The translations under genes and the position numbers were made by a program. Under the pieces are notes generated by a model. It was not told the DNA's origin and did not search any database. It was given only the letters and a program-made list of their open reading frames with translations. This document shows, one piece after another, positions 10,994 through 32,306 of a stretch of 64,000 nt of DNA; positions within the stretch are counted from its first letter, which is position 1; every line of letters begins with the position of its first letter. The stretch comes from a virus, in the IMG/VR virus record IMGVR_UViG_3300035703_000059, positions 1 to 64,000 of that record, one strand, 5' to 3'.

Positions 10994-11767
10994 ATGGCGA
11001 ATGGATGGAATCCCCTCATCGGCATCGGCTTCACCAGCCTCGGCATTGGCTACCTGTGGGAAGCCTACTCTCGTAACAAGACCGGGACGCCGGCAACACC
11101 GGCGGAGCCGATCACGACGAACGGCCTGCGGAGGCGGCTTCCCCCCGGCTCAACGGGCCTCGGCTACGCGGAGCCGAAAAAGGGAGGCATCCGCTCGATG
11201 AAGATGCACGCGGTCGGCACCATCGAGGACCGTGAGCGGTACATTCGCGAGCAGATCAAGAAGGACAGCCTCAACCCGAAGGTCATCAGCGCGGCGCGCG
11301 CGGTGGTGTCGGGCCGCTGCCCGAAGGCCGACGGCGGCGTGATGTGGTGCGTCAAGCCGAAGGACTCGATGGGCGAGATTCGGCTGATGTTCAAGGCCGT
11401 CGTCGACCCGAACTCGGCGCTCGCGGTGCGCTACACGCGCGACCACCCGACCGTCGACCTCTTTCCGTCGAACGAACTGCTGGACCGTCTCCCCGCAGAG
11501 GACTGCGACGGGATGGTGGTGCGGCTCGGCGCGCTTCTGCGGGCCATTGGATTCCACGTTCGCACGCGCATTGTGGCGCCGGCCGGAAAGCCGAAACAAT
11601 GGGCGCACATCTATCTGATGGTCGCGCCTGTGCCGGGTGTCGCCGACGGATGGTTGCCGCTGGACCCGACGGAGCCGGAGCGCGCGTATCGTGCGCGAAA
11701 CGCGCCGTTTTGGGAGCCGGGAACGGACCAGATCGATCCGCTGAAACTGGACGGGCCAATCATCTAA
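10994..11767 (+). CDS. Membrane-anchored transglutaminase-like cysteine enzyme (putative protease)
   Basis: N-terminal TM. Catalytic-type triad in EDCDG...ALLRAIG...WAHIY...WLPLDPT. Confidence 0.85.
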   Translation: MANGWNPLIGIGFTSLGIGYLWEAYSRNKTGTPATPAEPITTNGLRRRLPPGSTGLGYAEPKKGGIRSMKMHAVGTIEDRERYIREQIKKDSLNPKVISAARAVVSGRCPKADGGVMWCVKPKDSMGEIRLMFKAVVDPNSALAVRYTRDHPTVDLFPSNELLDRLPAEDCDGMVVRLGALLRAIGFHVRTRIVAPAGKPKQWAHIYLMVAPVPGVADGWLPLDPTEPERAYRARNAPFWEPGTDQIDPLKLDGPII

Positions 11768-11786
11768 GACAACAGGGAGTCCGCGC

Positions 11787-12107
11787 ATGGCCGACAACGG
11801 TGAGAAGTTGGAGGGACTGCTCGACGAACGGTATCGCCCGTCGTTTCGACTGATGGTTGGAATGGGCGTAGGGGTGGGCGTGCTGACGTTCCTCATCAGC
11901 CAAGCAGAGGCGTTCGTCGAGGCGCGCATCGATAAGCGGGTGCTGGCGGGGAACGCGCTGGTGGAGATTCAGACCAAGCGACTTGAGAAGGTGGAGTACC
12001 GGGTCGACGAGGTTCGCGAGGCGGTGATGGAGATTCGCGCCGACGTGCGGACCTTGCGCGAGTCGCGAAACGTCCCGCCGCCGCCGGCCATCCGAAAGGC
12101 GGAGTAG
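11787..12107 (+). CDS. Small TM plus coiled-coil protein
   Basis: LMVGMGVGVGVLTFLI helix followed by a charged coiled coil. Confidence 0.65.
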   Translation: MADNGEKLEGLLDERYRPSFRLMVGMGVGVGVLTFLISQAEAFVEARIDKRVLAGNALVEIQTKRLEKVEYRVDEVREAVMEIRADVRTLRESRNVPPPPAIRKAE

Positions 12108-12110
12108 CCG

Positions 12111-13316
12111 ATGTCGTGTGAGGTCGTCGCCGGAGAAGCCGCAGACGGTTCCGTCGTGTTGACGGACAATCAATGCCGCACGCTCGACATTCAGAACGTG
12201 CTGGCGTTGTCCGACGGGGCCGGAAACCACGCGGCCTGCGGCTCCAAGGCGTGCGTCTACGAGACGAGCGACCCGTCCACGCTGGTCAAGGTGACGAGCG
12301 ATTGGATGGACGTGTGGGCGCTGAAAAAGACGGCCGGGATGGCGGACGTCGTTCCCGTGAAGCGGATGTTCAAGCTGAAGGGGAAGCGGCGTTCGGTGAA
12401 CGGAGTGGCCGAGAACGCGCTGTACGCCATCGAGGTCGCCCGCGCGCAGCCGCTATCGAAGCGCGACGAGTTGTTCCTCAACACGACGGCGTTCGACGCG
12501 ATCACGCTCTACTTCGACCAGATGCTCCTCCCCGGCGTCTCGCCGAAGAGCGTCATTGATTTTCGCGAGTCGTGTCGAAAGACGGTGGATGCGGCGCGGC
12601 GCGGCGGGAAGCCGTACATGACGACGCCGCAGGCCGACCAAGCGGCGTGCGAGGCCGTGACGAGCGACGCGCTCGATGCGGTGGAGCGGATGGCGAAGCG
12701 CGGCGTCTACTTCACCGACGCCCACGCGGGAAATTGGGGCCGGTACAACGGGCGGCTGGTGGCGCTCGATCTTGGGCTTTCAGCACCGCGAGGGACACGG
12801 ACCCCGAAGGTGCCAGAACTTGAAGGGATGGGCGCGATGAACGACCGGAAGATGCAAAACATGGTGCTGTTCGGCGCGGGCGCGCTGATTCTGTTCCTGC
12901 TTCTGCGGCCGAAGAAGGCCAAGGCGGAGACGTCGCTGCCCGGCAGCGGCACCGGCAGCGGGGAGTCGATCTCGTCGCTCGGCGAGCGGCCCATCGCGCT
13001 CGACCCCGCGTTCGCGAGGGCTTACGGCCCCGTCAAGGCGTACACGGTTCGCCGGGGTGACAGCCTGTCGAGGATCGCCCAGCGCGAGTTTATGACTGAG
13101 GAACTGTGGCCGTTCCTGTGGGACATCAACCGGACGGCGACGCAGTTCGCGGTTCCCGATGCGCTGGAAATCGGCCAGACCATCTACGTCCCGACGCGAG
13201 GCTCAACGAATCGGGCATACTACACGCGGTTCGACGCGCACAAGACGTGGTACATGAGCGGCGGTCGCGGTGTTCCGCCGGAGTCTGTTTCTTCGTTCAC
13301 CGTCATCGCGCTCTGA
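12111..13316 (+). CDS. Protein-kinase-like domain / TM helix / LysM fusion
   Basis: Kinase-like motifs GSKACVY, LVKV, FTDAHAGN and DLG. TM VLFGAGALILFLLL. LysM motif YTVRRGDSLSRIA...INR...PDALEIGQTIYVP. Confidence 0.8.
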   Translation: MSCEVVAGEAADGSVVLTDNQCRTLDIQNVLALSDGAGNHAACGSKACVYETSDPSTLVKVTSDWMDVWALKKTAGMADVVPVKRMFKLKGKRRSVNGVAENALYAIEVARAQPLSKRDELFLNTTAFDAITLYFDQMLLPGVSPKSVIDFRESCRKTVDAARRGGKPYMTTPQADQAACEAVTSDALDAVERMAKRGVYFTDAHAGNWGRYNGRLVALDLGLSAPRGTRTPKVPELEGMGAMNDRKMQNMVLFGAGALILFLLLRPKKAKAETSLPGSGTGSGESISSLGERPIALDPAFARAYGPVKAYTVRRGDSLSRIAQREFMTEELWPFLWDINRTATQFAVPDALEIGQTIYVPTRGSTNRAYYTRFDAHKTWYMSGGRGVPPESVSSFTVIAL

Positions 13317-17186: not shown

Positions 17187-17588
17187 ATGGCGTCGTGTCC
17201 GGTCATCCGCAAAGAGTTTCAGCGCCTCACGAACATGAGCGCCGCTGAGATTCGGTCGTGGGCGAAGGATGACCGGGCGAAGTGCTTTTCGCAGAAGGCA
17301 ACGCGGCGACGGCTCACGCAGCCCTCAATCTATCGAGGGCATCGTGTGCCGTCGCTCGCGAACCTTCGCAAGCGCGCCTTCACGGGGGCGTGGTCGGAAG
17401 AGGACTGCTGGTACGGGAACATCGTCAACGGGTTCAACAAGCGGTTCTTGAAGATGAAGCAGAAGCACGGCTGTACGGACGGGATCGTCGTCGCGCTGCG
17501 GAATTGGGGCCACCAGCCGAAGTCGTGCGCGGTCCCGACGAAGAAATGCAAGCGCGAGCATGAGCCGCGCGTATCGAAGAAGGGATGA
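17187..17588 (+). CDS. DUF3140-like basic protein
   Basis: FQRLTNMSAAEIRSW...VALRNWGHQP matches the DUF3140 pattern (NM..EL..W ... SL.NWGHDP) as I recall it. Confidence 0.65.
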   Translation: MASCPVIRKEFQRLTNMSAAEIRSWAKDDRAKCFSQKATRRRLTQPSIYRGHRVPSLANLRKRAFTGAWSEEDCWYGNIVNGFNKRFLKMKQKHGCTDGIVVALRNWGHQPKSCAVPTKKCKREHEPRVSKKG

Positions 17589-17592
17589 GGCC

Positions 17593-18507
17593 ATGACGCG
17601 GCTTGAGGCACAGCGGGATGTCGAGACGGCGCAGCTACAAGCGGAGGCGAAGTATCAGTCCCTTCTGAACCAGCAACGCACGGCGGGACGCAGGGCTGTC
17701 GCAGCGAGCAAGGTGTCCGCGATCAAGACGAACCTCATCGATGTCGCGGAGAAGGCACAGAAGGCGGTGCTGGACTCCGAGAAGCTGATCGCGGGCAACA
17801 TCGGCACCTACGGCATCGCCAGCGGAGCGCTTCGTCGGGAGATCGAGAACAACATCGCCTACGCCAAGCGGTTCACGACGTTGTTCGTGCAGGCCGCGCG
17901 GGACTTCAAAGAAACGGGGCAGTTTTTCCGGGTGGCAGGGTCGTCGCGCGATCCGGCGGGCCTTACGGTCGTGGGCGACCAGTTCAACAGCGGCACCTTG
18001 CTTGCGAACTACGTTGACTTGACCTACGCGACGTCGGTGGCTCTCGGCGCGCAGGGCGACTCGTTGCAGGGCGGCGTCATCACCAACCTGTTCCCGAACT
18101 TGACCGACGCCGTGGCGGTGCCGCTGATGAAGGGTGTCGCGGGGCTGTGGGACGTCGTCAAGACGCTGGGGCAGGCCGGCGTCGATATGGCACAGTTCCT
18201 CGCCGACATTCTCAAGAAGCTGCCGAAGATTGGCGGGTTCGCGCTCGATTGGCTTCCGTGGGTGCTGGCGGTCGTGATCATCGGCCCGCCGCTCATTCGC
18301 ATCATTCTCGCGGGTCGTCGGCGCGGTGCAGACGCGGCGCTGGAAGAGACAGGCGCGACGTTGACTGAGGGGCGCGAGGCGATCACCAGCGGCGCGCGAA
18401 AGGCGGGGTCGATGGCCGTTCGCGGGGGCAAGGTGGCGGCGGCGGCCTACACCGGAAATCCCGCGCTTGCAATCTCTGGATTGTCGAAACGCGCACGTCG
18501 CCGGTAA
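17593..18507 (+). CDS. Helical membrane protein
   Basis: Coiled-coil N-terminus. TM WLPWVLAVVIIGPPLIRIIL. Confidence 0.7.
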   Translation: MTRLEAQRDVETAQLQAEAKYQSLLNQQRTAGRRAVAASKVSAIKTNLIDVAEKAQKAVLDSEKLIAGNIGTYGIASGALRREIENNIAYAKRFTTLFVQAARDFKETGQFFRVAGSSRDPAGLTVVGDQFNSGTLLANYVDLTYATSVALGAQGDSLQGGVITNLFPNLTDAVAVPLMKGVAGLWDVVKTLGQAGVDMAQFLADILKKLPKIGGFALDWLPWVLAVVIIGPPLIRIILAGRRRGADAALEETGATLTEGREAITSGARKAGSMAVRGGKVAAAAYTGNPALAISGLSKRARRR

Positions 18508-18516
18508 AGTGAAAGA

Positions 18517-18846
18517 ATGGCCTACGGCGCTCGTCAGAACTTGATGATTCGGTCCTATCTGCTCATCGCGGCGAAGCTCGGTGGGTGGACGAAGGACGCG
18601 GGAGCCGATGGCGCGGCCTACGTCTCGCCGGCACAGAATCCCAACCGGGAAAAAGGTGGGGTGTGTCGGAACTGTGCCTTCTGGAACGGGTCCGACGGGT
18701 GCGCGATTGTGAAGGGGCCGATTGCCGCCGAAGGGCTGTGCAAGCTGTGGGTCATCGATGAGTCGCGGCTGGGGGCCGGGCGCGTCGATGGCCGTCTCGC
18801 CGGTCGACCGATGTCGCTTGAGGTCGTGCCGCCCAAACGTCGCTGA
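18517..18846 (+). CDS. HiPIP-like four-cysteine protein
   Basis: Y...CRNCAFW...CAIVKGPIAAEGLCKLW follows the HiPIP ligand spacing. Confidence 0.7.
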   Translation: MAYGARQNLMIRSYLLIAAKLGGWTKDAGADGAAYVSPAQNPNREKGGVCRNCAFWNGSDGCAIVKGPIAAEGLCKLWVIDESRLGAGRVDGRLAGRPMSLEVVPPKRR

Positions 18847-18921
18847 AGTGCGAAGCCCCGCCGGTGTGCAGCCGGCGAGGCTTCATTTTGACTCTGCGAC
18901 GGAGGGGCGCTCGGTCAAAGG

Positions 18922-18996
18922 TGGCTGGCGGGGTAGGAGTCGAACCTACGGCCACGCGATTAACAGTCGCGCGCTCTGCCTCTGAGCTACCCGCCA
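18922..18996 (-). tRNA. tRNA-Asn(GTT) with encoded CCA
   Basis: Reverse complement TGGCGGGTAGCTCAGAGGCAGAGCGCGCGACTGTTAATCGCGTGGCCGTAGGTTCGACTCCTACCCCGCCAGCCA. It has a 7-bp acceptor stem, D arm, CT-GTT-AA anticodon loop and GTTCGA T-loop. Confidence 0.95.
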
Positions 18997-19055
18997 ATCG
19001 ATGCCGTTCCTACCGGCGTTCGCCGCTTCCGTCAAGAGCGGGTAAACTGCCCGCC

Positions 19056-19499
19056 ATGCCGGTTCAACGTGTCAGCGGACAAGCGTTCGGGGGGATCGTG
19101 GACGACGCGTTGCGCGCGGTCGTTCCGCAGGCGGTGACGCGCGTCGAGTTTCGTACCTCGCTCACGCCGCCGTCGACCATCGCCACGACGGAGTCGATTC
19201 TGGCGGCGATGATTCGCGGCGACACCGCCGAGAACGCGCCTCCGCCGACGACGGCCGCCGAGAGAGCAGAGCCGTCATACTCGGCGTCGCAGAAGTTCTT
19301 TGCGGCACTCAAGCCGACCTTCATGGTGGAGTCGCCGACGTTCGGGCGGCGTATCTACGCGCCCTACGGCGTGGCCGGACCAAAAGATTTCGTTCGTGGG
19401 CAGCGGACCTTCATCGGCGGCCTCGTCGTGATGTCGCTGGGCCTTGTGGGCCTCGGCTACGCGCTTGGCTATGCCGTGGGCCGCACGATGCCCCGCTAG
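19056..19499 (+). CDS. C-terminally membrane-anchored protein
   Basis: MPVQRVSG... with C-terminal TM FIGGLVVMSLGLVGLGYALGY. Confidence 0.65.
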   Translation: MPVQRVSGQAFGGIVDDALRAVVPQAVTRVEFRTSLTPPSTIATTESILAAMIRGDTAENAPPPTTAAERAEPSYSASQKFFAALKPTFMVESPTFGRRIYAPYGVAGPKDFVRGQRTFIGGLVVMSLGLVGLGYALGYAVGRTMPR

Positions 19500-19539
19500 A
19501 TTTTTCGCGTGCGGTGGACGCGCGCAACAGGAGTCGTCG

Positions 19540-20208
19540 ATGGCGAAAGGCATGAAGTCGGAGGCGGAGCGTCGCGCCGGGTGGCTCGCGAAGCAGCAGA
19601 AGTTCGCGGAGGCCATCGCGAAGCAGCGCGCGATGCGCGACTTCCAGTTTCCCGAAGACCGTCCGCCGCTTCGGCAGGACTCGCTCGTCAAAGGGGAGCG
19701 GCCGGAGGCTCTGCGTAGCCCCGGCGTGGCGTACCTGTGCAACTGCGGCCGTGCAGCGCGCGAGGGCGCGTCCTGCGTGTGCGAGGTCGATCCGCGCGTC
19801 CTGCGGCGCGAGGTGAGCAAGACGAACGCGCAGCGGGAGCGCCGTAAGCGGAGCATCGAGCGCAAGCTGCGTGGGTCGAAAATCGGGCAGGAAGAGCGCG
19901 CGGATCTTGAGCGCGAACTCGCCGAGATTCAAGACTTCTACGTCACCGCGCGGAACCGCACGGAGGCGAACCTTGTCGCCGAAGGACGCGTCGCGGGCAA
20001 GAAGGCCGGGCCGCGTCAGAAGAAGCTGAAGGGCAAGCTGGAGGCGAAGACGGTGGCGCCGGGCGTCGTTCGCCGGACGCGCGTGGACGGGCTTGAGGCG
20101 GTGGGCGACCGGGGCGTCATCAGCATTTGGACGCTGGGTTCCATCTTGCTCATCGGCGTGGGCGTCTACGCGGTTTACAGCACGTTCCAGAAAGAGCCGA
20201 AGGCGTAA
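19540..20208 (+). CDS. Basic protein with CxC...CxC and C-terminal TM
   Basis: Start context AGGAGTCGTCG-ATG. TM IWTLGSILLIGVGVYAVY. Confidence 0.7.
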   Translation: MAKGMKSEAERRAGWLAKQQKFAEAIAKQRAMRDFQFPEDRPPLRQDSLVKGERPEALRSPGVAYLCNCGRAAREGASCVCEVDPRVLRREVSKTNAQRERRKRSIERKLRGSKIGQEERADLERELAEIQDFYVTARNRTEANLVAEGRVAGKKAGPRQKKLKGKLEAKTVAPGVVRRTRVDGLEAVGDRGVISIWTLGSILLIGVGVYAVYSTFQKEPKA

Positions 20209-20211
20209 TCG

Positions 20212-20904
20212 ATGGCCGCATTGGCGAATGAGCGCGTCCTCATCATCGGCGACTCGATCACCGTCGGGTCGTTCGGTTCACGCTTGGAGCGGCGCTTCAA
20301 AGACGAGGGCGCGACCGTCAAGCGCGACGCGAAGAGCGGGCGCGCGACGACGTGGTTCTACGCGGACGCGGGCAAGCTGGACGCGGGCCGATTGCCCGGC
20401 CTCGCGGCGTTCAATCCGACGACGGTCATCATCGCGCTGGGGACGAACGATGCGGGGATGTTCACGACGAACGTCGAGCGCGCCAAGAGGTTCTTCGGCA
20501 AGGTGATCGCCGACCTGCGTGACAACGCGGCGGCTCCGCCGACGTTCTGGTGGGTGACGGCGCCGGCCTTCGACTCGCGCGCGAAGAACGTGGACGCGTC
20601 GTGGATCGACGCGCAGATTCGCGCCGTTTCGCCGCTGTTCGACAACGTCATCGACGCGCGTGCGCTGACGAGCGATATGACGGCGAAATCGGATGGGCGC
20701 ACGTCCGACCTCATCCACTTCACGACGAACGGCGGCGCGCGGTACGCCGACCGCGTGTTCGATGCGTTCATGCAGAAGCGCGGAAAGACGCCCGACGTGG
20801 CGCCCCCGAAGCTGCCTTCGAAGGTCGAGCCGATGACCGTGGGTCTGTTCGTGGCGGCGGCCCTCATCGCTTACGCGGTGTGGGTGTCGCGGAGGCGCGG
20901 ATGA
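20212..20904 (+). CDS. SGNH/GDSL hydrolase with C-terminal TM anchor
   Basis: Conserved blocks IIGDSI, SG, LGTND and DLIHF. TM GLFVAAALIAYAVWV. Confidence 0.9.
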   Translation: MAALANERVLIIGDSITVGSFGSRLERRFKDEGATVKRDAKSGRATTWFYADAGKLDAGRLPGLAAFNPTTVIIALGTNDAGMFTTNVERAKRFFGKVIADLRDNAAAPPTFWWVTAPAFDSRAKNVDASWIDAQIRAVSPLFDNVIDARALTSDMTAKSDGRTSDLIHFTTNGGARYADRVFDAFMQKRGKTPDVAPPKLPSKVEPMTVGLFVAAALIAYAVWVSRRRG

Positions 20905-21380: not shown

Positions 21381-21483
21381 CGCACGTTGACTTTCAACCA
21401 TCGATTCTCAGACCATGAGGTCACGCCGCACCGTCGACTCGGTGCTCTGACGGGATGTCCCGCAGAAAGTAAGGAGAAATCTC

Positions 21484-22067: not shown

Positions 22068-22148
22068 GTCAACCCCTACACGCCCCCACATTGACTTTCG
22101 AAGATGAACTTCGAAAGGATGGGGGCAGCAGAAAGAAGGAGACACCCC

Positions 22149-22784
22149 ATGTACGACTACGGCATGAACGGTTTTGCGGGTCTGATGGACGACATCAAGT
22201 CGAGCGCCGGTGAGGCGTTCGCTGGCGGCGCCGGCCTCGTTGTCGGCGTGAGCCTTGCCAAGTTCGTCACCGCCAAGGTGGACAAGGCGGTTTCGGAGAT
22301 GGAGGCGGGCGCTGGGAAGGACGCGCTCGGCTACGTCACCCCGGCCATCCCGCTGGTTCTCGGCCTTGCGCTGTACGCGAAGTTCCGCAACAGCCCGTCG
22401 CTCGCGGCTCGCAGCCTCGGCGCGGCGAACGGCGCGGGCATGATCGCCTTCTCGCTGGCGACCTACGCCAAGAAGCTGATCGGCCTGTCGAAGAGCGAGG
22501 GCGCCACGGCGGCGGCCAGCTACATCGGCCTCGGCGCGGTGGACACCTACGAGTCCCCGATCCTCGCCGGCCTCGGCAACTACGGCCCGATCAGCGAGTA
22601 CCTCCGCCCCAGCCTCGGCGCTTACGGGATGCGGTCGCCGGGCGCTCCGGTGTTCGTCGAGGACGCTGGCATGGCCGGCGCCCCGACGCAGTTCCAAGAG
22701 GTTCGTGGCAGCGTGAACGGCCTGCACGGCGCTCCGTCGTCCATCGAGATTGTTCCTTCCGCTCTTTCCTCGGTTCTGATGTAA
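22149..22784 (+). CDS. Multi-TM putative major membrane protein directly upstream of the capsid candidate
   Basis: Three hydrophobic segments and several GLG/GMAG motifs in the tail. RBS AAGGAG. Confidence 0.7.
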   Translation: MYDYGMNGFAGLMDDIKSSAGEAFAGGAGLVVGVSLAKFVTAKVDKAVSEMEAGAGKDALGYVTPAIPLVLGLALYAKFRNSPSLAARSLGAANGAGMIAFSLATYAKKLIGLSKSEGATAAASYIGLGAVDTYESPILAGLGNYGPISEYLRPSLGAYGMRSPGAPVFVEDAGMAGAPTQFQEVRGSVNGLHGAPSSIEIVPSALSSVLM

Positions 22785-22863
22785 GAAGCCCCGCGCCGGC
22801 ATCGATGCCGGTGCATTGACCCCCAACTGACGCCTGCGGGCGTCGCTCGACAGGAGAACTACA

Positions 22864-23499
22864 ATGGCCGTTCTGCGTCCCACTTCCGAAACTGGCGTGT
22901 ACGAGGTCGAAGGTCTTGGCACCAAGATCCGTTTGATCGAATGGCGTGCCGGCTCCTTCTATGACTCGGTGGCCTTCGCCGCCGGCGCCATCACCCCCGG
23001 CACCAACCAGCTTCTCTTCCAGAACCTCCAGAACAAGAACCGCCAGCACACCAATCTCGACAACAACGCTGGCCGTCTGCCCGCGCTGACCGAGCTGATC
23101 TGCAACCGTATCGGCGCGCACATCACGCAGGCCGTCGGCAGCAGCGTCACCGTCGACACCGACATCATCCAGCTTGCTCACGCGGCTTATATGCAGGTCT
23201 TCGTGAACCAAGATCGCCGGGTCGCGGACCAGCCGCTCTACACCTTCCAGAGCGGCTACGGCATCACCGGCACCACGACCCGCAACGCCACCGGCGTTGT
23301 GACGACCGGCGTCGCGTCGGCCGCTGCGGCTCCGCAGCTTCTCGTCGCGCAGCCCATCGGCCCGAACGACGCGCTGACCGGCAAGATTCAGGTTGACGCG
23401 GCGACGTGGATCGCCGGCTACGCGAACCCCTCGCTGGCCGCGACCAACGTCGTGACCGTGTTCCTCGACGGCCTCATCAAGAAGCCGCAGGGCGCGTAA
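22864..23499 (+). CDS. Candidate major capsid protein (single jelly-roll)
   Basis: 211 aa, beta-rich, no TM. FYDSV...LLFQ...K...TNL...GRLP...ICNRIG and terminal VTVFLDG resemble single-jelly-roll capsid-like proteins as I recall them. Strong RBS and codon bias. Confidence 0.6.
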   Translation: MAVLRPTSETGVYEVEGLGTKIRLIEWRAGSFYDSVAFAAGAITPGTNQLLFQNLQNKNRQHTNLDNNAGRLPALTELICNRIGAHITQAVGSSVTVDTDIIQLAHAAYMQVFVNQDRRVADQPLYTFQSGYGITGTTTRNATGVVTTGVASAAAAPQLLVAQPIGPNDALTGKIQVDAATWIAGYANPSLAATNVVTVFLDGLIKKPQGA

Positions 23500-23615
23500 G
23501 TCTCCCCGACCATCGATTCCCCCGTCGATGGGGGCGCGAGCCGTCAATCCTCACGGATTGGCGGCTTTCGCCTTTGTGGGGTATGCTCGCCGCGACTCAC
23601 CCGTAAGGAGACTCC

Positions 23616-24188
23616 ATGCAGATCGCACCGCCTCCCGATAACGCCTATATCCAGACGCTTACGTCGCGGATCATCGAAGGCCGAACGATCACGCCCTACG
23701 ACTATCGCGCGATGGTGCTTCCGCTCTACACCACGCTGTCGACGTCGCAGCCCATCGGAAGCGCGACCTACACGATCCCGACGAATATGCGCTTCCGCGT
23801 GCGAAGCATCCTGCCGCACGTTGCGCCGCTCCGCGTGTCGGCGGAGACGATTGCGAACCCCGGCAACTTTGCTCCGCAGAACGTGGCGGGTGACGTGTTC
23901 GACGGCGGCGACGTCATCGACCGTCTCTATGCGAAGGCGATGAACTGCCGCATCAACATCGCGATGCAGAGCCGCGCGTTCGACCTCACCTACAACCAAG
24001 CGTTCGCGATCTCGGACCTCATGGCGGAGAACGGACAGGGTCCGAGCTTCCTCGATATGCCGGGTCTGATTCTGCAAGGAACGACCATCGACTTGAACGC
24101 CGCGCTCATCGATACCGACGCCGACGTGATCGGCAGCCCGACCGAGTACGGCATCGTTCTCGTCGGCGCCTTCATCCGCGTGGACTAA
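23616..24188 (+). CDS. Candidate second jelly-roll capsid protein (paralog of the 24200 ORF)
   Basis: Shares AKA.N.R and terminal TEYG..L.GAF.R with the next ORF. Confidence 0.5.
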   Translation: MQIAPPPDNAYIQTLTSRIIEGRTITPYDYRAMVLPLYTTLSTSQPIGSATYTIPTNMRFRVRSILPHVAPLRVSAETIANPGNFAPQNVAGDVFDGGDVIDRLYAKAMNCRINIAMQSRAFDLTYNQAFAISDLMAENGQGPSFLDMPGLILQGTTIDLNAALIDTDADVIGSPTEYGIVLVGAFIRVD

Positions 24189-24199
24189 GGGGAAAAACC

Positions 24200-24838
24200 G
24201 TGGCGATTCTGACTCCCGCTCCGATCAACTTTCAGCAGAAAATCCGCAGCGAACTTGCGGAGGCTCTGCGGCTGAACTTCGGCGACATCTTTCCGACCAT
24301 CCTGCACCTTCGGGTGACGCTGGGCGGGACGCTGAACCCCGGACCGCCCCCGACGGTGACGCTGCCGACCCCCGGCAACGACATCTTCCGCATCCCCGGC
24401 GACTACTCGCTGCTCGTCGGCGAGATTCGCGGCCACATCGCGCTCAACGAACTGTCGCAGGAGTCGACGACGGCTCCGACGAACACGGGCCTTCTGAACA
24501 TCGCCGGTGTGCGTAACCGCGTCGTCGCCAAGGCGCTGAACGCGCGCATGGTGCTGGTCAACGCGGACCGCGACAATCTGAAGTTCGTGGAGACGGACAT
24601 CGCGAACAGCGCGAACCCGCTGGGCATCAGCGCGAACCTCTGCCTCGCGAACCTGCTCCCGGCGGCCGGTGGCTCCCCGATCAAGCTGATCGGGGACGGC
24701 GACGTCATGCCGCTCATCGTGCCGGGCAACGAGCGCATCAAGCTGACCGTCGCACTCAACGACGAGAACGCGTCGCTGGGCCAGACGGAGTACGGACTGA
24801 CGCTGATGGGCGCCTTCGTGCGTTCGCGGGGTAGCTGA
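24200..24838 (+). CDS. Candidate third jelly-roll capsid protein
   Basis: AKALNAR and TEYGLTLMGAFVR match AKAMNCR and TEYGIVLVGAFIR in the 23616 ORF. Confidence 0.5.
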   Translation: MAILTPAPINFQQKIRSELAEALRLNFGDIFPTILHLRVTLGGTLNPGPPPTVTLPTPGNDIFRIPGDYSLLVGEIRGHIALNELSQESTTAPTNTGLLNIAGVRNRVVAKALNARMVLVNADRDNLKFVETDIANSANPLGISANLCLANLLPAAGGSPIKLIGDGDVMPLIVPGNERIKLTVALNDENASLGQTEYGLTLMGAFVRSRGS

Positions 24839-26631
24839 TGAAAACGGTCGCCGACCAAGTGCGTGAAATCCGCGCCGCTCTCATCGCGCAGCACAAGCGC
24901 GAGGGCGTCGGCGACATCGCCTCCGCGAAGATGCAGACCGAGCGCGAACTGGCGCTCACGAAGATCTACGGGGGCGTCCCCGGCTACTACGGCCCGCCGC
25001 CGCCCTCGCGTGGTCTGAGTGCGGTGTCGAACGCGATCTGCCCGCCGGGATTCAAGCGGGACCGCGTCTCCAATCAATGCACCGTCGCCATCGAAGAGAA
25101 CCCGTCGTACCTGCCGGGCATCACCGAGTTCCAAGGCCCGACGCTGATGCAGAACTCGCGCGTCGACAACTTCGTCATGCAGGCGCCGAAGTTCCGTGCG
25201 CCGACGATGCTGTCGGGCCTCGGTGATCTGTCGACTGATGCCCCGTGGCCGGCGTATACCGCGACTGAGTTGACGTGCAACGCGTTCAGCGGAGACGATG
25301 GGTATGCGAAATGGTCGATGTCGCAAAAAGTCAACCAAGCGGTAATCAAATGGGTGGCCTACTGGAGAAATCCGAATAACACCAGCCCCTCCGGCGGCAC
25401 CGTATCTTCTCTTCGCGCCGATTTGATCACGGAGAGGGATGTCACGGACGAATTCAAAAACGCGGTTCGCAAGCGAAACCCCTGTCGCCCCTCTCACATC
25501 GATGCGCTAGTCCGCGCCTTCCCGCCGGGCCGTGGGGCCGGCGTGCTGGCGTGTGAGACAACCTATGAGTGCGCCAAGTACGGCAAGGTCTGCGTGAACG
25601 GGGTGTGCGAGGGTCAGTTAGTGTTCTGCGAGAAGACTGATGACTGCCAGAAGCTCGACTTTACCTACGTCTGCTCCAACGAAATCAGCTCCGTTCGTCC
25701 CCAGCCGCACGCGATATATAGTGCGCCTTACTGCACGCCAGCCCGCGCTAACGAAGTTGCGTTGTGGTCGGCCAAGAAGCGTGCAGCGGCGGCGGCAGCA
25801 ACGGCTGAAGCTCGCGCCTTGCAGCAATCCGCGAATCGCGCCCAGCAGGCCCGTCAGCGTGCCGCATCCGGTGCTTCGGCACGAACGGCGGCCATCGAGA
25901 GCGCCATACCCAGCATTTCTGCGTCGAAGTCTGCGGGGCGCGCGCGGGCAGCCGTTGCCGCAGCGGCAGCAGCAGCGGCGGCTCGCGGCGTTGGTCCGGG
26001 GACATCGACGATGTCGCCGGCCGATGCAGCGGCTCGTCAGCGCGCGGCGGCGGCCGTAGCTGCGGCGGCGGCTGTGGCGCGAGGACGCGGCCTTACGCCG
26101 GGAGCAGGCGCGGCGGCGGCCGATATGTCGCGCGCGGGCCAGCAGGCCACCGCCGACGCGGCGGCAGCGCAGGCGGCGCGTCAATCGTCGGCCGACAAGG
26201 CGGCGTGCCGACCGGAGTGCAAGACGGGCGAGGTCGCGGAGCGCATCCCCGGCACGAAGTGCTATCGATGCGTCGTTCCGCCGCTCCCGACCGACACGAA
26301 GCCACCCGAAACCAAGGTGTGCGACCCCGGATTCGTTCTCAACGCCGACGGCGGCTGCGTTCCGGCCACGCAAATCGAGCGTCCGCCGGAGTGTCCGGCG
26401 TGTCCGAAGGTGCGATGCCCGTCGTGTCCGCCCCAGCAGTCGTGTCCGACCTGCCCGCCGTGTGACGTCACCGGCGGATACGGTGGCAGCGGCGGCGGCG
26501 GTAGCGGCGGCGGTGGGGGTGGCGGCGTCACCTACATCGACAAAGAGTGTCCGGCCTGCCTTCAGAAGAAACCGAGCATTTGGCCGTGGGTGGTCGCCGG
26601 CGTTGCGACCCTCTACGCTGTCACCCGATAA
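24838..26631 (+). CDS. Cys-rich, Ala-stalk, C-terminal TM protein
   Basis: Many Cys residues (CPACPKVRCPSCP; CVNGVC...C..DC), a long Ala helix, TM WPWVVAGVATLYAV. Confidence 0.75.
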   Translation: MKTVADQVREIRAALIAQHKREGVGDIASAKMQTERELALTKIYGGVPGYYGPPPPSRGLSAVSNAICPPGFKRDRVSNQCTVAIEENPSYLPGITEFQGPTLMQNSRVDNFVMQAPKFRAPTMLSGLGDLSTDAPWPAYTATELTCNAFSGDDGYAKWSMSQKVNQAVIKWVAYWRNPNNTSPSGGTVSSLRADLITERDVTDEFKNAVRKRNPCRPSHIDALVRAFPPGRGAGVLACETTYECAKYGKVCVNGVCEGQLVFCEKTDDCQKLDFTYVCSNEISSVRPQPHAIYSAPYCTPARANEVALWSAKKRAAAAAATAEARALQQSANRAQQARQRAASGASARTAAIESAIPSISASKSAGRARAAVAAAAAAAAARGVGPGTSTMSPADAAARQRAAAAVAAAAAVARGRGLTPGAGAAAADMSRAGQQATADAAAAQAARQSSADKAACRPECKTGEVAERIPGTKCYRCVVPPLPTDTKPPETKVCDPGFVLNADGGCVPATQIERPPECPACPKVRCPSCPPQQSCPTCPPCDVTGGYGGSGGGGSGGGGGGGVTYIDKECPACLQKKPSIWPWVVAGVATLYAVTR

Positions 26632-26642
26632 GGAGAATCGAT

Positions 26643-27950
26643 ATGGCTAACAATCGTCGAAACGTGGTCCCCAGCCAGATTGCCCCCCAGCTTATGCAGA
26701 TGCGCGATCTGTCTGCCGGCAACGACATCTACCGTCAGTCGCGCCGCGCCGTCGAGGCGATGGCCGCGCTGGAGCGTCGGCGTCAAATTCTGACGTCGAA
26801 GGGCTACGTCTCTGAGGCGGGCCGCACGTTGCAGGGCATGGCGGATGTGTTCGCCGCCGCTCCGACGCTGCCGGAACTGGAGAACGCGATCAAGCAGCTT
26901 CTCCCCGACGGCTCCATCGTCAGCGGTCGCGAGTATTACGACCGCATCCAGAAGCAACTGAACCCGGTCTGGTACAACGGCGGCTACTCCCGCCCCTCGG
27001 ACTTCAACGAGTTCGTCAAGCAGAACCTCAAGGTGACGAACTACCCGGCCGAGTACCAGCCCTACGTCATGCCGGGCGTGCAGGCCGCGTCGTACTTCTA
27101 CGTCACGCAGCAGGCGCAGAAGGCCGGTTCGGCTCTCAGCGGCTTCAGCCCCGCTCCGCGCAGCGTCGTCGAGGGCGCGCGCATGGAGGAGCAGGCGCGC
27201 AAGAAGGCTGTGGCGCTGATGGCGCTCGCGGGCCTTGGGCGAATCGGTAAGGGCGTTGAGCGTTGCTGGGGATTCAACTGCCCCGACGAGACGGGTGACT
27301 TTGAGTTCACGGTTCCCGCGTCGATTGTGAATTCCAAGCTGACGGGCATCGATTACTTGAAGATGAACACGTCATGGATGTCGGGGACGGCGGGATGCCA
27401 GACCGAAATCACCAATAAGTCCGGCGGCAAGGTGTTCGGCCTCGCCATCGATGACGGCGACTCAAACAGCTACAACAACGCCAACGCGATCCGTCGAGTG
27501 AAGGCCGCCGCCGTCGCGCAGGCGCTCTACAAGGTGGGCGGCGAGGCGTACTTGACGCTTCCCAACCTCTACACCTATGGCGCCATGAAGGCGCATGACG
27601 TGCGAGAGCTTGAGCAGCTTATCCGCACCTATGGTACGGCAGACCGGATTGCAGCCAGCGCACAGAAACCGCCCGACACGTTGTTCGGGGACGGGTCGAG
27701 TTCTCGGTCGAGTAGCTGTAAATTCGACATGGGTAAGATGCCCTCGCTGGACGACGTGGCGAAGGTTTGGGACACCGTTTCGTCGCGGATTCCCGGCGGC
27801 GGCGGAGAGGTGACTCCTCCTCCGGGCGGCGACACGCCTCCCCCCGACGACGAGGAGAAGGGCGGGATCGATGCGCTGACGATGGTCGGCGTCGTCGGCG
27901 TCCTCGCCCTCGGCGGCATCGCGCTCTACTTCGCGCGCCAGAACCGATAG
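26643..27950 (+). CDS. C-terminally anchored membrane protein
   Basis: Start context AAGGAGAATCGAT-ATG. Pro linker, then TM MVGVVGVLALGGIALYF. Confidence 0.75.
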   Translation: MANNRRNVVPSQIAPQLMQMRDLSAGNDIYRQSRRAVEAMAALERRRQILTSKGYVSEAGRTLQGMADVFAAAPTLPELENAIKQLLPDGSIVSGREYYDRIQKQLNPVWYNGGYSRPSDFNEFVKQNLKVTNYPAEYQPYVMPGVQAASYFYVTQQAQKAGSALSGFSPAPRSVVEGARMEEQARKKAVALMALAGLGRIGKGVERCWGFNCPDETGDFEFTVPASIVNSKLTGIDYLKMNTSWMSGTAGCQTEITNKSGGKVFGLAIDDGDSNSYNNANAIRRVKAAAVAQALYKVGGEAYLTLPNLYTYGAMKAHDVRELEQLIRTYGTADRIAASAQKPPDTLFGDGSSSRSSSCKFDMGKMPSLDDVAKVWDTVSSRIPGGGGEVTPPPGGDTPPPDDEEKGGIDALTMVGVVGVLALGGIALYFARQNR

Positions 27951-27960
27951 GAGGCGTGTC

Positions 27961-28218
27961 ATGGCTTGTTCCGCAGACGTTTTGACGAAGTACCCGGCCG
28001 GCACGCTTGAGAACTACAAGCGGTATCCCAACGTCCAGTTCGCGAATGAGTGCTGGTACGGCTACGACGGCGTCAACACGGTCGTTTGGGCGCAAGATCC
28101 CGCCGTGCTTTACAAGGGGCAGGTCGACGACAAGATGAGCACCACGCAGATGATCGGGTGGGGCGTTCTTGGCCTCGCCCTCGTCTACGGGATCTGGTCA
28201 GCGTCGAAGAGCCGATAA
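27961..28218 (+). CDS. Small C-terminal TM protein
   Basis: TM IGWGVLGLALVYGIW. Confidence 0.7.
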   Translation: MACSADVLTKYPAGTLENYKRYPNVQFANECWYGYDGVNTVVWAQDPAVLYKGQVDDKMSTTQMIGWGVLGLALVYGIWSASKSR

Positions 28219-28230
28219 CCGGGAGAAGCC

Positions 28231-28818
28231 GTGGCCGAAACTCGTCGATTTTCACAGGCCAACGACTTCGGATTCGTCAACCGTCAAGACGACGAGGTGA
28301 TGTGCGCCGCAAGCGGCGCCGTGCCGTATCGGACGGTCTGCCAAGTCATCGATGACGCGGCGATCTACTACGCAACCGCCGGGGAAGGCGCCCTGCTCGA
28401 CATCCGGCGCTGGTACAGCCAAAGCCCCGAATTCTTCCCCGGCTCGTTCCTCCCGGCGGGCGCGATTCCGGCGTTCTACCGGGCGATTCTGGCGCGTGCG
28501 TTTTTCGCCGAGTTTGGCGGCGCGAACTTCGTCCCGACGCTTCGGCAGATGATCGTCGTGCTGAACATGGTCGAGGAACCGCGCGGGCGTGAGGACGACT
28601 ACGCCAAGACGCGGACGGCGGTGAAGGCGATCCTCGGCGTGTGCGAAAAGACGTTCAACGGACAGCCCGCGTGCAGTCCGGGGGAAATATCGTGGGCCGC
28701 AGAGCGGATGAACGCCCTTGATCGGGCAGAAACCGCCGGCCCCGGCGTCAACATGATGCTCATCGCCGTTCCGGCGCTCTTGTTTGCGGGCGCGCTGCTG
28801 CTTCGGCGGCGCGGGTAG
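28231..28818 (+). CDS. C-terminal TM protein
   Basis: TM MLIAVPALLFAGALLL followed by RRR. Confidence 0.7.
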   Translation: MAETRRFSQANDFGFVNRQDDEVMCAASGAVPYRTVCQVIDDAAIYYATAGEGALLDIRRWYSQSPEFFPGSFLPAGAIPAFYRAILARAFFAEFGGANFVPTLRQMIVVLNMVEEPRGREDDYAKTRTAVKAILGVCEKTFNGQPACSPGEISWAAERMNALDRAETAGPGVNMMLIAVPALLFAGALLLRRRG

Positions 28819-28827
28819 GGGAACGCG

Positions 28828-30927
28828 ATGGCCGACAACGAGAACACCACACCGCCGGGATTCGTCAGCACCTTTCCCGTGTTCGCTGAGTGCGATTCCA
28901 TTCTGCGCGCAACGCGGGAGGGCATCGGTCTTTTGACGGGTGGGGAAGAGGGCAGGCGCCGGGTCGATGTGAAGTACCTTCGATGCCAGCTTCTCACGCA
29001 GAGCCGGACCGAACTTGGAGATCGGTCGCTGCTCCAGTTTCCGCTGTGGTGGGACTGCCGGCCGACGAGCGGCACCTTCGATCCGGGTGACGTTTTGCGG
29101 CGGGCCTACGCAAAATACACGCAGAAAGACCCCAACTCTGCGGACATCGGATTCATCGCAGGCATCCTTCGCGAGATCGACGACCTTCAAGAGGGGGGCG
29201 GCTCCAGCGAGGACCGGGCCAACTACGAGGGAAACGCGGGTTCGTACACCATCATTCAGAACCTCCTGCTGGCCCTCTCCGACTTCCCTCGGCAGGGGTC
29301 GGACGGACGCGCGAACCTTGAGACAATCGTCGATTTGTCGCTGCGCGTGACCGACTCGATCAAAGACATCATCGTCAAAGCGTTTCCGGCGGCGGGCGGC
29401 GTCGGCGACAACGTCGTCCGCATCCTCAAGATTTTCCTCGACGGCATCTTCTACATGGGTGACGCGGTCGCCGAGGAGAAGGCGCTGCGGACCGAGATGG
29501 CCTCGCGGCTAATCTCCGACGAACGCGTGACGAACGTCGGCGGCGGCTACGAGAAGTTCTACGGCAACCGGCCATCGATGATCACGACCCGGTCGTGGTG
29601 CGCTGCCGGAAACGCTGCGCGCGACAACTACCTCGCCCCCGGAACGAACGGCGCGTACCTTCGGGCGAAGACCCGATACGATGACGCGCGGCGGTTCTTG
29701 GACACGTTCGCCGCGATGCTTGAGCGGACGCAGGGCGAGTCGACGCCGAAGACGCGCGAGCGGGTATTCGCACGATTCCAGCTAATCGGAAGCTGGATGC
29801 TGGCGTATGCCGCCGACGAGGTATGGCTGTCGGATTACATTACCTACGACACCATCTTCGACCGCCTTCGATTGTCGGCGGCAGACGCGGTCGTGAAGGT
29901 GACGTTTGAGCCGAGGCTCATCGAGTTCAAGCGCCTCTACCCGTATTCGGCGCGGGCGGCGACTCGTCTTGAGTGCGATTACCCCGACTGCGACACGGAT
30001 TTCTGGATTCCGTTTTGGGCGGACACGAAAGCCGGAAACTGGAATCTGAAAACCGGAACTGCCGACATCGGTGTGACGGAAAAGGCGATCAGAGACGCGA
30101 CGAACATCACCTTCGACTTTTACGCCACCGCGATTCCGAAGCGAAGCGTGACCGGGCGCCGGTACAACAGCTACAAGTCGAAGTCGGTCGTGGACGTGTC
30201 GCTTACGGTCATGCCGCTTGTGAACACGCTGTATGAGTGGGCGCGAGCCGCTGCCCCTACATGGGGGAAGATTAAGCAATACAATCTGATCCGTTACGCG
30301 CTGACCGGGTACGCGACCGGCGCCGTCAAAGACTTCGGCGAGTACGCGAAGAACCGCATCGATGTCTACGACCCGGCGTTTCGCCAGAGGTTCATCGACA
30401 CCCCGCTGACGTGGCAGCAGATCGCGCTCTACATCATCGCCGGGCGCACGGACCTTGGGCCGCAGCCGAGGCCGGAAGAGTTCAACGTCGCGGCGACGCG
30501 GTGTCCCGGCGGCTCGTCGGACACGTCCTGCCTGCCCTGCGAGAAGATCAAGAATCGGCGCCCCATCGGCGCACGGGAAGTCCAAATCCCGATGCTCGTC
30601 GGCTACACGCCGCCTCTGGCGACGTTCGTCGGCAGCACGAACTATCGGGGTTCGGTGGAGTACGCGGCGTGGCGAAAGGCGCTCGTCGATGCGGGTTATC
30701 CGGGGTACTACATCGACTGCATCGAACGTGACGTGACGTGGGTGTCCTCGCGGGCTGGCGAGGTGATTTCGGTTCGTCCGCCGCCGCCGCTCGTCGTCAG
30801 TCTACCGCTGGCCGCTGTGCCGAAGCCCCGCGCGGTGCGGACGTCGGACATTCCCGAACTCACCGGAATCACCCGGCCGCTCGTCGCCGAGATCGCGGGG
30901 CCGATGCTGCCTCGAAGGACTCGATAA
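28828..30927 (+). CDS. Large hypothetical protein (699 aa)
   Basis: Long ORF in operon context. No motif recognised. Confidence 0.7.
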   Translation: MADNENTTPPGFVSTFPVFAECDSILRATREGIGLLTGGEEGRRRVDVKYLRCQLLTQSRTELGDRSLLQFPLWWDCRPTSGTFDPGDVLRRAYAKYTQKDPNSADIGFIAGILREIDDLQEGGGSSEDRANYEGNAGSYTIIQNLLLALSDFPRQGSDGRANLETIVDLSLRVTDSIKDIIVKAFPAAGGVGDNVVRILKIFLDGIFYMGDAVAEEKALRTEMASRLISDERVTNVGGGYEKFYGNRPSMITTRSWCAAGNAARDNYLAPGTNGAYLRAKTRYDDARRFLDTFAAMLERTQGESTPKTRERVFARFQLIGSWMLAYAADEVWLSDYITYDTIFDRLRLSAADAVVKVTFEPRLIEFKRLYPYSARAATRLECDYPDCDTDFWIPFWADTKAGNWNLKTGTADIGVTEKAIRDATNITFDFYATAIPKRSVTGRRYNSYKSKSVVDVSLTVMPLVNTLYEWARAAAPTWGKIKQYNLIRYALTGYATGAVKDFGEYAKNRIDVYDPAFRQRFIDTPLTWQQIALYIIAGRTDLGPQPRPEEFNVAATRCPGGSSDTSCLPCEKIKNRRPIGAREVQIPMLVGYTPPLATFVGSTNYRGSVEYAAWRKALVDAGYPGYYIDCIERDVTWVSSRAGEVISVRPPPPLVVSLPLAAVPKPRAVRTSDIPELTGITRPLVAEIAGPMLPRRTR

Positions 30928-31731
30928 ATGGACACCCCCATCTACAAGCGCGCATGGTTCTGGGTCGTCGTCGGTGGGGCGATTCTCCTCGCCATCCGCC
31001 GCAAGCAGGTCGAACTGACCCCTCCGCCGAAGCTGCCGGGGCCGGAGGTCGCGCCTCCGTCGGGGTCGGCGTCGATTGACCCGTTCCGCACGACGAACCT
31101 GTCGGCCGAGCAGGAGCGCGCGTTCATCGCCGCCCTGCCGAGAGCCGGCCAGCAGTACGGCGCGCTGTTCGCACAGGCGGGTCGCGAGAAGGGCATCTCG
31201 CCGCTCTTGCTCGCGGCCATCTGCGAGACGGAGACGTACTACGGCGAGGCGGCGGCGTGCAAAGGCAAGGGTCCGGCCTGCGAGGGAACGCTCGCCGACG
31301 ACTTCGGCCTCATGCAGATCAACAGCAAGGCGCACCCGGAGTTCTTCAAGCGAAGCGTCAACGGCACGCCCGCGTGGAAGGTGCCGCTGGAAAACATCCG
31401 CTACGGTGCCGAGGTCTGGAACTCGTCGCTCGCATCGATGCGCGGGCGTCCGAACTCCAGCGGCAAGGTCGACGTCGGCGCGCGGCGAGCCGCGCAGCTT
31501 CTCGTCAAGCCGGGCAAGTACCCCGACCCGCGTCCGATGGACATCGATCTCGCACGCTGGGCCGCGACTTCGGGCTACAATGCAGGACCGATGGCGGCAA
31601 TCATCGCGGTGGCGGCGGACAGGTCGCCGGACGCCGTGACGCACGGCAGCAAGTACGGCAAGACGGTTCTGGACAAGCTGGGGAGAATCTTCAACAAGAC
31701 GGTCGAGAACTTGAACCGGGGAGCACAATGA
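30928..31731 (+). CDS. Membrane-anchored lytic transglycosylase (SLT/GH23-like)
   Basis: N-terminal TM. LLAAICETET (catalytic Glu), GLMQI, NIRYGA and GYNAG. Confidence 0.9.
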   Translation: MDTPIYKRAWFWVVVGGAILLAIRRKQVELTPPPKLPGPEVAPPSGSASIDPFRTTNLSAEQERAFIAALPRAGQQYGALFAQAGREKGISPLLLAAICETETYYGEAAACKGKGPACEGTLADDFGLMQINSKAHPEFFKRSVNGTPAWKVPLENIRYGAEVWNSSLASMRGRPNSSGKVDVGARRAAQLLVKPGKYPDPRPMDIDLARWAATSGYNAGPMAAIIAVAADRSPDAVTHGSKYGKTVLDKLGRIFNKTVENLNRGAQ

Positions 31732-31925
31732 GCGCGCCGAAAGTGATCAAGACGATGCAGTTTCCGACGCCGACAGCGGCGAAGCAGTACCTCGCGCAGA
31801 TGGGGGCGCAGTACCGCAAGATCGACGAGTTGACCGGCAAGCCGCTCTACAAGACCCCGGCGGGCATCGTGTTCCGCCCGTCGTCACCGCAGGCGCTTGA
31901 AGTGCTTGCGAACTGTGTGTGCTAG
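31728..31925 (+). CDS. Small hypothetical protein
   Basis: ATGA overlap with the SLT gene. MSAPKVIK...NCVC. Confidence 0.6.
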   Translation: MSAPKVIKTMQFPTPTAAKQYLAQMGAQYRKIDELTGKPLYKTPAGIVFRPSSPQALEVLANCVC

Positions 31926-31934
31926 GAGTCATCG

Positions 31935-32306
31935 ATGGCCGATATGATTGCGATGCTGAACGGGCTGGGCGCCTACGGCGAGTTTCCGATTGGGGACGTC
32001 GATCCGGCGACGAGCGCGCGCATCGGCCAGACCTCGCCGGGGACGGGCCTGTCGAACGAGCAGATCACCGTCTACAACCCGCAGCCGTACACGCTGGGGA
32101 AGATCGACGACGAGGAAGAGGGTCTGAGCGGGACGACGTGGCTGTTCATCGTGCTGGGCCTCGGCGCTGCGGCGTGGGGCATCTCCAAGATGGTCAAGTC
32201 TGCGTCGCCGGAGCCGGGCGAGGACTTCCTCGACGGCATCGCCGAGCCGGAGATGATCGAACTCAACGCGCCCCCCGCACGCACGCGGGGCAAGGGGAAG
32301 CGATGA
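31935..32306 (+). CDS. Single-TM protein with N-terminal LNGLG motif
   Basis: Start context GGAGTCATCG-ATG. TM WLFIVLGLGAAAWGI. Confidence 0.7.
   Translation: MADMIAMLNGLGAYGEFPIGDVDPATSARIGQTSPGTGLSNEQITVYNPQPYTLGKIDDEEEGLSGTTWLFIVLGLGAAAWGISKMVKSASPEPGEDFLDGIAEPEMIELNAPPARTRGKGKR

Follow-up and report, generated by a model that had tools for sequence, protein, structure and literature searches.

A conserved L-x-G-L-G tag on candidate particle proteins and a membrane-anchored transglutaminase-fold enzyme in a probably tailless bacterial virus

The IMG/VR virus record IMGVR_UViG_3300035703_000059 is 75,406 bp long with a GC content of 65%, and its first 64 kb form the window analysed here. 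Genes between 1 and 36.3 kb lie on the + strand (the + arm) and mostly have no known family; from 36.7 kb on, genes lie on the - strand. The + arm encodes a 257-residue enzyme of the transglutaminase fold, ORF 10994, and a series of otherwise unrelated proteins in which the short motif L-x-G-[LM]-G recurs. Sequence comparison with relatives indicates that L-x-G-L-G is a genuine short tag, maintained by selection, on the proteins from which this virus and its relatives build their particles. Coding frames, which are easy to pick at 65% GC, were chosen by third-position GC content (GC3). The initial annotation of the window had listed five strict sites, and all five are found where it placed them, in frame in GC3-supported + strand genes. 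These sites, a sixth strict match, the looser versions and the proteins that carry them are as follows.

11150-11164, + strand: STGLG, in the juxtamembrane linker of the enzyme ORF 10994
12819-12833, + strand: LEGMG, the weakest site, 10 residues before the membrane helix of a kinase-like/transmembrane (TM)/LysM protein (12111-13316)
19443-19457, + strand: LVGLG, the sixth strict match, within the predicted C-terminal membrane helix of the product of gene 18864-19499
22149-22784, + strand: protein B, a membrane protein encoded directly upstream of the capsid candidate, as in the relatives G001, G002 and L013-L020; its C-terminal tail includes L-x-G-A-P-x-Q/E units
22521-22535, + strand: YIGLG, in the C-terminal tail of protein B
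22563-22577, + strand: LAGLG, in the C-terminal tail of protein B
22864-23499, + strand: the capsid candidate, 211 residues, the most conserved + arm protein, with an N-terminal [VI]EGLG
22906-22920, + strand: VEGLG, in the N-terminal arm of the capsid candidate
25210-25224, + strand: LSGLG, in a 597-residue Cys-rich, C-terminally anchored protein (24838-26631)
26829-26843, + strand: LQGMA, in protein D (26547-27950)
27225-27239, + strand: LAGLG, where the conserved N-terminal half of protein D ends
31956-31970, + strand: LNGLG, residues 8-12 of protein E, a 123-residue membrane protein (31935-32306)

The looser instances that we checked (VEGLG, YIGLG, STGLG and LQGMA) all exist, and no pairwise similarity was found between the carrier proteins, which are therefore mutually unrelated, as had been claimed. 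The sites had also been described as lying mostly in unstructured ends or just before TM anchors. This description fits two of the strict sites, one N-terminal and one ten residues ahead of a helix; one further site lies within a helix and three are internal.

For comparison, we used the genomes G001 (85.8 kb, with direct terminal repeats) and G002 (a 52.6-kb provirus), the fragment G003/L025 and eleven metagenome loci, L013-L023. These relatives are distant, with 25-70% identity over shared proteins, and two scans of genome contigs for more related loci found none. The LVGLG match at 19443 was set aside as a tag: it is probably a helix-packing glycine pattern, and L013 has LMAAG at that place. 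The LEGMG site is present ten residues ahead of the membrane helix but is not conserved in L025, the sole relative covering the gene, and must be considered doubtful. There, the kinase-like and TM-LysM parts are encoded by separate genes, both lacking the motif. In L025 (10747-13396), the counterpart of the kinase-like part, with its D-L-H-x-G-N and D-F/L-G motifs, takes the form of two tandem stand-alone genes. Pfam finds only LysM in the window's 12111-13316 protein.

Within the window, the + arm proteins contain six strict matches, compared with 0.75 expected from within-protein shuffles (P ~4e-4), and all other proteins (10,978 residues) contain none, compared with 0.5 expected. Because this excess does not survive correction for all selectable motifs (when all gapped 5-mers are allowed, the median best P across shuffled proteomes is 1.7e-5, and most of these proteomes hold an equally extreme 5-mer), the window by itself proves nothing. 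The relatives were therefore analysed with the motif fixed beforehand and with expected counts derived from per-protein composition. The motif was seen 7 times versus 0.62 expected in L013, 7 versus 0.41 in L014, 5 versus 0.26 in L015, 7 versus 1.6 in G001 and 4 versus 1.25 in G002. With membrane helices and Gly-rich tracts masked, 14 sites remain in the structural arms of three genomes (G000, G001 and G002), where 1.7 are expected, and 1 in the other arms, where 1.8 are expected; the comparison of the two arms proposed in the initial annotation thus finds the motif to be specific to the structural arm. G[LM]G taken by itself shows hardly any enrichment: the excess lies in the Leu located two residues ahead of G[LM]G. 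The consensus of 41 sites is [G/A/S]-L-[A/N/R]-G-L-G-[A].

Conservation in homologues, the other comparison that had been suggested, also came out in favour of the tag, with the motif kept at 25-40% identity. It is the best-conserved element in two fast-evolving families, that of protein B (55 members) and the N terminus of protein E (30 members). In protein B, D-T-Y-[DE]-S-x-L-x-G-L-G is kept at 24-56% overall identity, with G141 invariant and L142 and G143 nearly so; across the family, the core D-x-Y-[DE]...G-[LMF]-G is found in 48 of the 55 members and [LM]xG[LM]G in 50. The tail of protein B contains 2-6 G-L-G or L-x-G-A-P units spaced by about 10 residues. In the family, these include 3-5 tandem decapeptides of the form [S/R]-L-x-G-A-P-T-Q-[V/I]-Q; a single Q-x-Q unit is present in protein B of the window. 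Because G-L-G replaces the single G of some L-x-G-A-P repeats, L-x-G-[L/A]-[G/P] looks like one theme. The repeats might bind the shell or donate glutamines to cross-links. Members of the family (P0153-P0207) also share a conserved C terminus, S-A-[T/A]-L-[M/V], and protein B (22149) is called from Met16 in the protein database.

Most of the 30 homologues of protein E start with M-x-E-[MQ]-I-A-M-L-[ND]-G-L-G, and the remainder of the protein splits into two dissimilar groups. Many homologues have a second copy of the motif just ahead of the C-terminal helix. The G001 homologue (L004 8727-9308) has a 33-residue repeat in three copies, all of which end in Q-Y-[S/N]-P-[R/N]-L-A-G-[A/V]-P, another variant of the L-x-G-A-P tag. 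In protein D, the place of LAGLG is taken by LAGLG in L013, where the alignment ends at the motif, and by LMGLGGFG in L019; the window's LQGMA corresponds to LQGLG at the homologous L013 site. Positional counterparts of the 597-residue protein cannot be aligned with it yet carry the motif at residues 120-170 in L013 (three copies), L014 and G001. Finally, the ten residues before G-L-G are more conserved than the ten after it, with 2.67 versus 1.95 bits in the B family and 3.93 versus 1.95 bits in the E family.

The enzyme gene and its main features are as follows.

10994-11767, + strand: ORF 10994, a 257-residue transglutaminase-fold enzyme with an N-terminal anchor
11012-11080, + strand: N-terminal helix (residues 7-29), weakly hydrophobic and Gly-rich, from the AlphaFold 2 model
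11504-11506, + strand: codon of Cys171, in the D-C-D motif
11606-11608, + strand: codon of His205
11663-11665, + strand: codon of Asp224

By its triad and fold, ORF 10994 is a member of the transglutaminase-like superfamily, in which it belongs to a subfamily of its own with a D-C-D signature and a membrane anchor. Its relatives form 460 representative clusters at E <=1e-3. In 66 aligned members, R146, Y147, D150, D155, D170, C171, D172, G186, H205 and D224 are invariant. ORF 10994 itself has no Pfam match at E 0.1 and none to Peptidase_C5, but Transglut_core (PF01841) is matched by 42 of the 66 homologues (best E 8.8e-12), and the LapG family (Peptidase_C93) is matched weakly by 5 of them (best E 0.0024). 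A profile of the enzyme family searched against PDB sequences gave noise only. The AlphaFold 2 model (pLDDT 88.8) matches 3kd4 (BDI_1141, a putative protease; Z 12.1, 144 aligned residues, rmsd 3.1), the pseudomurein endoisopeptidases PeiP (Z 9.8, Foldseek E 2e-4) and PeiW (Z 9.2), factor XIII (Z 9.7), PNGase (Z 9.6), 3isr (Z 9.1) and LapG (Z 8.1); nearly all of the top 34 fold matches are transglutaminase-fold proteins. With the triad invariant in 66 homologues, a fold match at Z 12.1 and an N-terminal anchor helix, the prediction of a membrane-bound Cys-His-Asp protein of this fold is supported. About 15 of the 150 best homologues are 555-620 residues long and have an intein (Intein_splicing, Hint, LAGLIDADG) at residue 171/172, the catalytic Cys (P0007, P0009, P0010, P0011, P0022, P0045 and P0068), which suggests an important active site.

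The anchor is a family feature, with a weakly hydrophobic N-terminal segment in 102 of 118 members. The Lys/Arg count is 2.71 after the anchor helix versus 0.83 before it, and this bias is seen in 74 members versus the reverse in 12. By the positive-inside rule, the catalytic domain would therefore be cytoplasmic, that is, on the capsid-facing side of a host-derived membrane. Besides the catalytic Cys, the ten closest homologues all retain Cys109 and Cys119. These two might form a disulfide or bind a metal, a point relevant to the side of the membrane that the domain faces. Of 106 family members, 33 carry G[LM]G in the linker between anchor and catalytic domain, a fourfold excess over the 8.3 expected, often as x-G-L-G-R; the linker reads STGLG in the window enzyme and LNGLG in the G001 enzyme. 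ORF 10994 is the only protease-like protein among about 60 proteins scanned. A predicted complex of enzyme residues 60-257 with the protein B tail scored 0.00 against a mark of 0.32, a result that weighs neither for nor against binding.

The virus is uncultured and temperate, with a genome of 75 kb, and is probably tailless and membrane-containing. Its capsid candidate has 12 homologues at 57-89% identity, in which [VI]EGLG and, at the C terminus, K206-K207 are invariant. The model is a jelly roll of modest confidence (pLDDT 62), the best match of which is the capsid protein of Sulfolobus polyhedral virus 1 (SPV1; Z 7.2, rmsd 3.7, 131 aligned residues, Foldseek E 0.018). Jelly-roll cement proteins of tailed phages score nearly equally. 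A tailless membrane-containing particle is likely, but it is not proven. We recognised no terminase, portal, HK97-type capsid protein, prohead protease or Walker-A packaging ATPase in the 75-kb genome, and a Walker-A search of the + arm proteins also found no such ATPase. Many + arm proteins have a membrane helix at their C-terminal end. Phage records gave no match to 23 kb of the window by megablast, nor to the capsid candidate by tblastn.

Among 50,697 phage records, the only homologue of ORF 10994 is gp34 of the membrane-containing Salisaeta phage SSIP-1, which is annotated as a 'structural protein'. The two enzymes have their catalytic core in common, with 36% identity across 84 residues, and both are membrane-anchored, but the anchor is C-terminal in gp34 and N-terminal in ORF 10994. 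By homology to gp34, ORF 10994 would be a structural protein of the virion. The SSIP-1 genome differs in size (44 kb) and GC content (57%), and hhalign detects no similarity between the capsid candidate of the window and the SSIP-1 structural proteins, its capsid candidate included.

We tentatively rank first the possibility that ORF 10994 acts as a maturation protease of the virion, cleaving its targets, among them itself, at or after G-L-G. The enzyme would be a component of the particle, its catalytic domain facing the capsid from the membrane, and would recognise the residues before and including G-L-G. Tagged proteins would be cut at or just after the tag during particle maturation, the enzyme's own linker being one of the cut sites, in parallel with the handling of (M/I/L)XGX-G sites by the adenovirus protease. 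We infer three of these elements: the membrane topology, the reading of the tag by the enzyme, and that reading amounts to cleavage. This possibility is put first because no other protease-like protein was found, a relative of ORF 10994 is annotated as a virion component, the linker of the enzyme family contains the tag, which equals the adenovirus protease consensus, and conservation ends at the tag. The drop in conservation after G-L-G, together with the end of homology between protein D and its L013 counterpart, is as expected of a protease that recognises the non-prime side of its site.

Several observations weigh against cleavage. There is no sign of it, direct or indirect, nor any of binding or cross-linking by the enzyme at the motif. 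In SSIP-1, the enzyme is present but L-x-G-L-G is absent outside membrane helices, and the 20-kb region around the enzyme gene in L025 is without a strict motif, LEGMG not being conserved there. VEGLG of the capsid candidate suits a structural or binding element over a removed leader, because it lies in an invariant N-terminal stretch and is modelled as a hairpin turn. The asymmetry in the E family is inflated, because its distant members were found via N-terminal words. The best solved phage-encoded relatives of the fold, PeiP and PeiW, cut cell-wall cross-links and not virion proteins. The topology follows from a rule of thumb, and the N-terminal tag of protein E may be on the other side of the membrane. 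On balance, the interpretation first put forward for this locus, in which ORF 10994 would process or cross-link membrane proteins of the virion at the motif or the motif would serve as an assembly or docking tag, is partly supported.

A docking or incorporation tag fits the data about as well as cleavage. Here the motif would bind the underside of the jelly-roll shell or a scaffold and pull membrane proteins, including the enzyme, into the particle uncut. The tags are multivalent (2-6 units in the tail of protein B and the three repeats of the G001 protein E homologue), their carriers are membrane-anchored, the capsid candidate's own N-terminal arm holds the invariant [VI]EGLG, and a tag in the enzyme linker fits the enzyme as cargo. 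That SSIP-1 keeps the enzyme without the motif means that the two are separable, which also agrees with docking. However, the capsid model lacks the confidence needed to show a pocket, and the fall in conservation right after G-L-G is not required by a docking model. We place docking a close second, as a possibility that is itself doubtful. The enzyme and the motif may also be unrelated, with ORF 10994 acting as a virion-associated or lysis peptidoglycan endopeptidase like PeiW and PeiP and the motif as a structural turn or some other signal. PeiP and PeiW are indeed the top Foldseek matches, the Gly-rich, weak N-terminal helix resembles the signal-anchor-release (SAR) helices of some endolysins, the gene is near those of a small membrane protein and the LysM protein, the conserved Cys109/Cys119 pair could be a disulfide, and virion-bound wall hydrolases are known in PRD1. 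We nevertheless regard this rival, though a serious one, as unlikely: the charge bias (74 members versus 12) suggests a catalytic domain on the cytoplasmic side, SSIP-1 gp34 is anchored at its C terminus, a VanY-type endolysin and an SLT transglycosylase are already encoded elsewhere in the genome, ORF 10994 has a membrane helix in place of any wall-binding repeats or domain, and G-L-G in the enzyme linker would be left unexplained.

A true transglutaminase could instead join the Gln of the protein B repeat (L-x-G-A-P-T-Q-V-Q) to Lys, for example the C-terminal Lys-Lys of the capsid candidate, and so staple the membrane to the shell. The fold and triad would allow this, Gln-bearing tandem decapeptides occur in 3-5 copies in the 55-member B family, Gln-rich tandem repeats are typical transglutaminase substrates, and K206-K207 is invariant. 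However, most characterised prokaryotic transglutaminase-like proteins, such as LapG and PeiW, are hydrolases, the protein B of the window has a single Q-x-Q unit, and the G-L-G motif contains neither Gln nor Lys; cross-linking thus appears improbable. Least credible of all is chance or composition. Leu and Gly are common at 65% GC, the motif was chosen post hoc, and its excess in the window (P ~4e-4) is weaker than the best motif of a typical shuffled proteome, but this account is refuted by replication in relatives with the motif preset, by structural-arm specificity and by conservation in homologues.

Genes of the + arm with a family match are those for the VanY-type endolysin, collagen-like fibre proteins, a GDSL lipase, the SLT transglycosylase and the LysM protein. 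Three of them are placed as follows.

2527-3246, + arm: VanY-type endolysin with a PG_binding_1 domain
20212-20904, structural arm: GDSL/SGNH lipase-acylhydrolase with a C-terminal membrane helix
30928-31731, + arm: SLT transglycosylase

The - strand genes beyond 36.7 kb encode an integrase, a family-A DNA polymerase, an SbcC-like protein, Sak4, ParB, an exonuclease, a helicase and a methylase; a primase adjoining the helicase is on the + strand. Bases 1-128 recur exactly at 75279-75406; the genome either has a short terminal repeat or is circular, with an overlap left by assembly. Within 22864-24838 lie three adjacent genes for small proteins of 211, 190 and 212 residues, of which the last two are paralogues. 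Many structural-arm proteins (17560-32306, + strand) have a single terminal membrane helix followed by a short Arg/Lys tail (LLLRRRG, YFARQNR, RTRGKGKR), which could contact packaged DNA. The longest-ORF versions of the genes starting at 14151, 18864, 19444 and 26547 add Arg-rich N-terminal extensions that look non-coding; translation probably starts within these ORFs, for example, in that at 26547, at residue 32 with MANNRRN.

The occurrence of a Gly-site tag with a virion-type cysteine enzyme in a widespread, unrecognised virus group makes proteolytic maturation a directly testable question. The scale of the enzyme family, 460 clusters, contrasts with a single cultured phage with a homologue among 50,697 records. 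If the tag is a docking signal instead, it would provide a simple rule for the entry of proteins into such particles. In either case, the tag would be a handy sequence marker for these viruses, which are largely unannotated by standard phage profiles. As a broader and speculative proposal, a large undescribed clade of tailless, membrane-containing jelly-roll bacterial viruses might use a transglutaminase-fold maturation protease or sortase-like transferase, anchored in the virion membrane, to read the tag on a dozen membrane-anchored proteins and on itself, acting between the last Leu and Gly of L-x-G-L-G.

The pattern in the window, with five non-membrane sites and with enrichment and conservation in relatives, fits the type-1 consensus of the adenovirus protease, (M/I/L)XGX-G (PMC3386624), as the initial annotation had pointed out. 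Shared with adenain (MEROPS C5) are Leu at P4, Gly at P2 and Gly at P1' on several unrelated particle proteins, and a cysteine enzyme of which, here, a relative (gp34) is annotated as part of the virion. However, adenain has the order His...Glu...Cys and the adenain/Ulp1 fold, whereas ORF 10994 has the order Cys...His...Asp and the transglutaminase fold. ORF 10994 is also membrane-anchored, its host is bacterial, and cleavage is a proposal. Because fold and catalytic order differ, the system would work like the adenain code without the enzyme being a member of the adenain family.

ORF 10994 shares with PeiW and PeiP (C71) the fold, the Cys-His-Asp triad and a viral origin, but has a membrane helix where these have N-terminal wall-binding repeats. 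From the rest of the transglutaminase-like superfamily, it is set apart by falling below Pfam detection, by its own invariant R146, Y147, D150, D155 and D-C-D, by its membrane anchor and by the lack of evidence for a wall-binding or calcium site. LapG is a periplasmic calcium-dependent protease, whereas the charge bias of ORF 10994 suggests a domain on the cytoplasmic side. SAR endolysins have an N-in topology, opposite to that suggested by the positive charge after the helix in the ORF 10994 family (74 versus 12). For docking, the nearest likeness is to the cargo-loading peptides of encapsulins, short Gly/Leu-rich tags on unrelated proteins that bind the inner face of the shell; these are C-terminal and serve an HK97-fold shell without a membrane, and docking is a proposal here.

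In tailed phages, the prohead proteases T4 gp21 (L/I-x-E) and phiKZ gp175 (S/A/G-x-E), which are herpesvirus-assemblin-like serine proteases of HK97-type capsids, use short site codes on many head proteins and cut themselves. The presence of one short motif on many particle proteins is shared with the virus described here, in which no such protease, portal or terminase was found. To our knowledge and in the literature searched, no membrane-containing bacterial or archaeal jelly-roll virus is known to mature by proteolysis, and no transglutaminase-like enzyme has been linked there to virion maturation in a jelly-roll virus. Among eukaryotic viruses, adenovirus, poxviruses and African swine fever virus (ASFV) cut at Gly-rich sites during maturation. 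If ORF 10994 does cleave at its tag, the system would be a convergent counterpart of the Gly-site codes of these viruses, and the enzyme would be without known precedent as a maturation protease in membrane-containing prokaryotic viruses.

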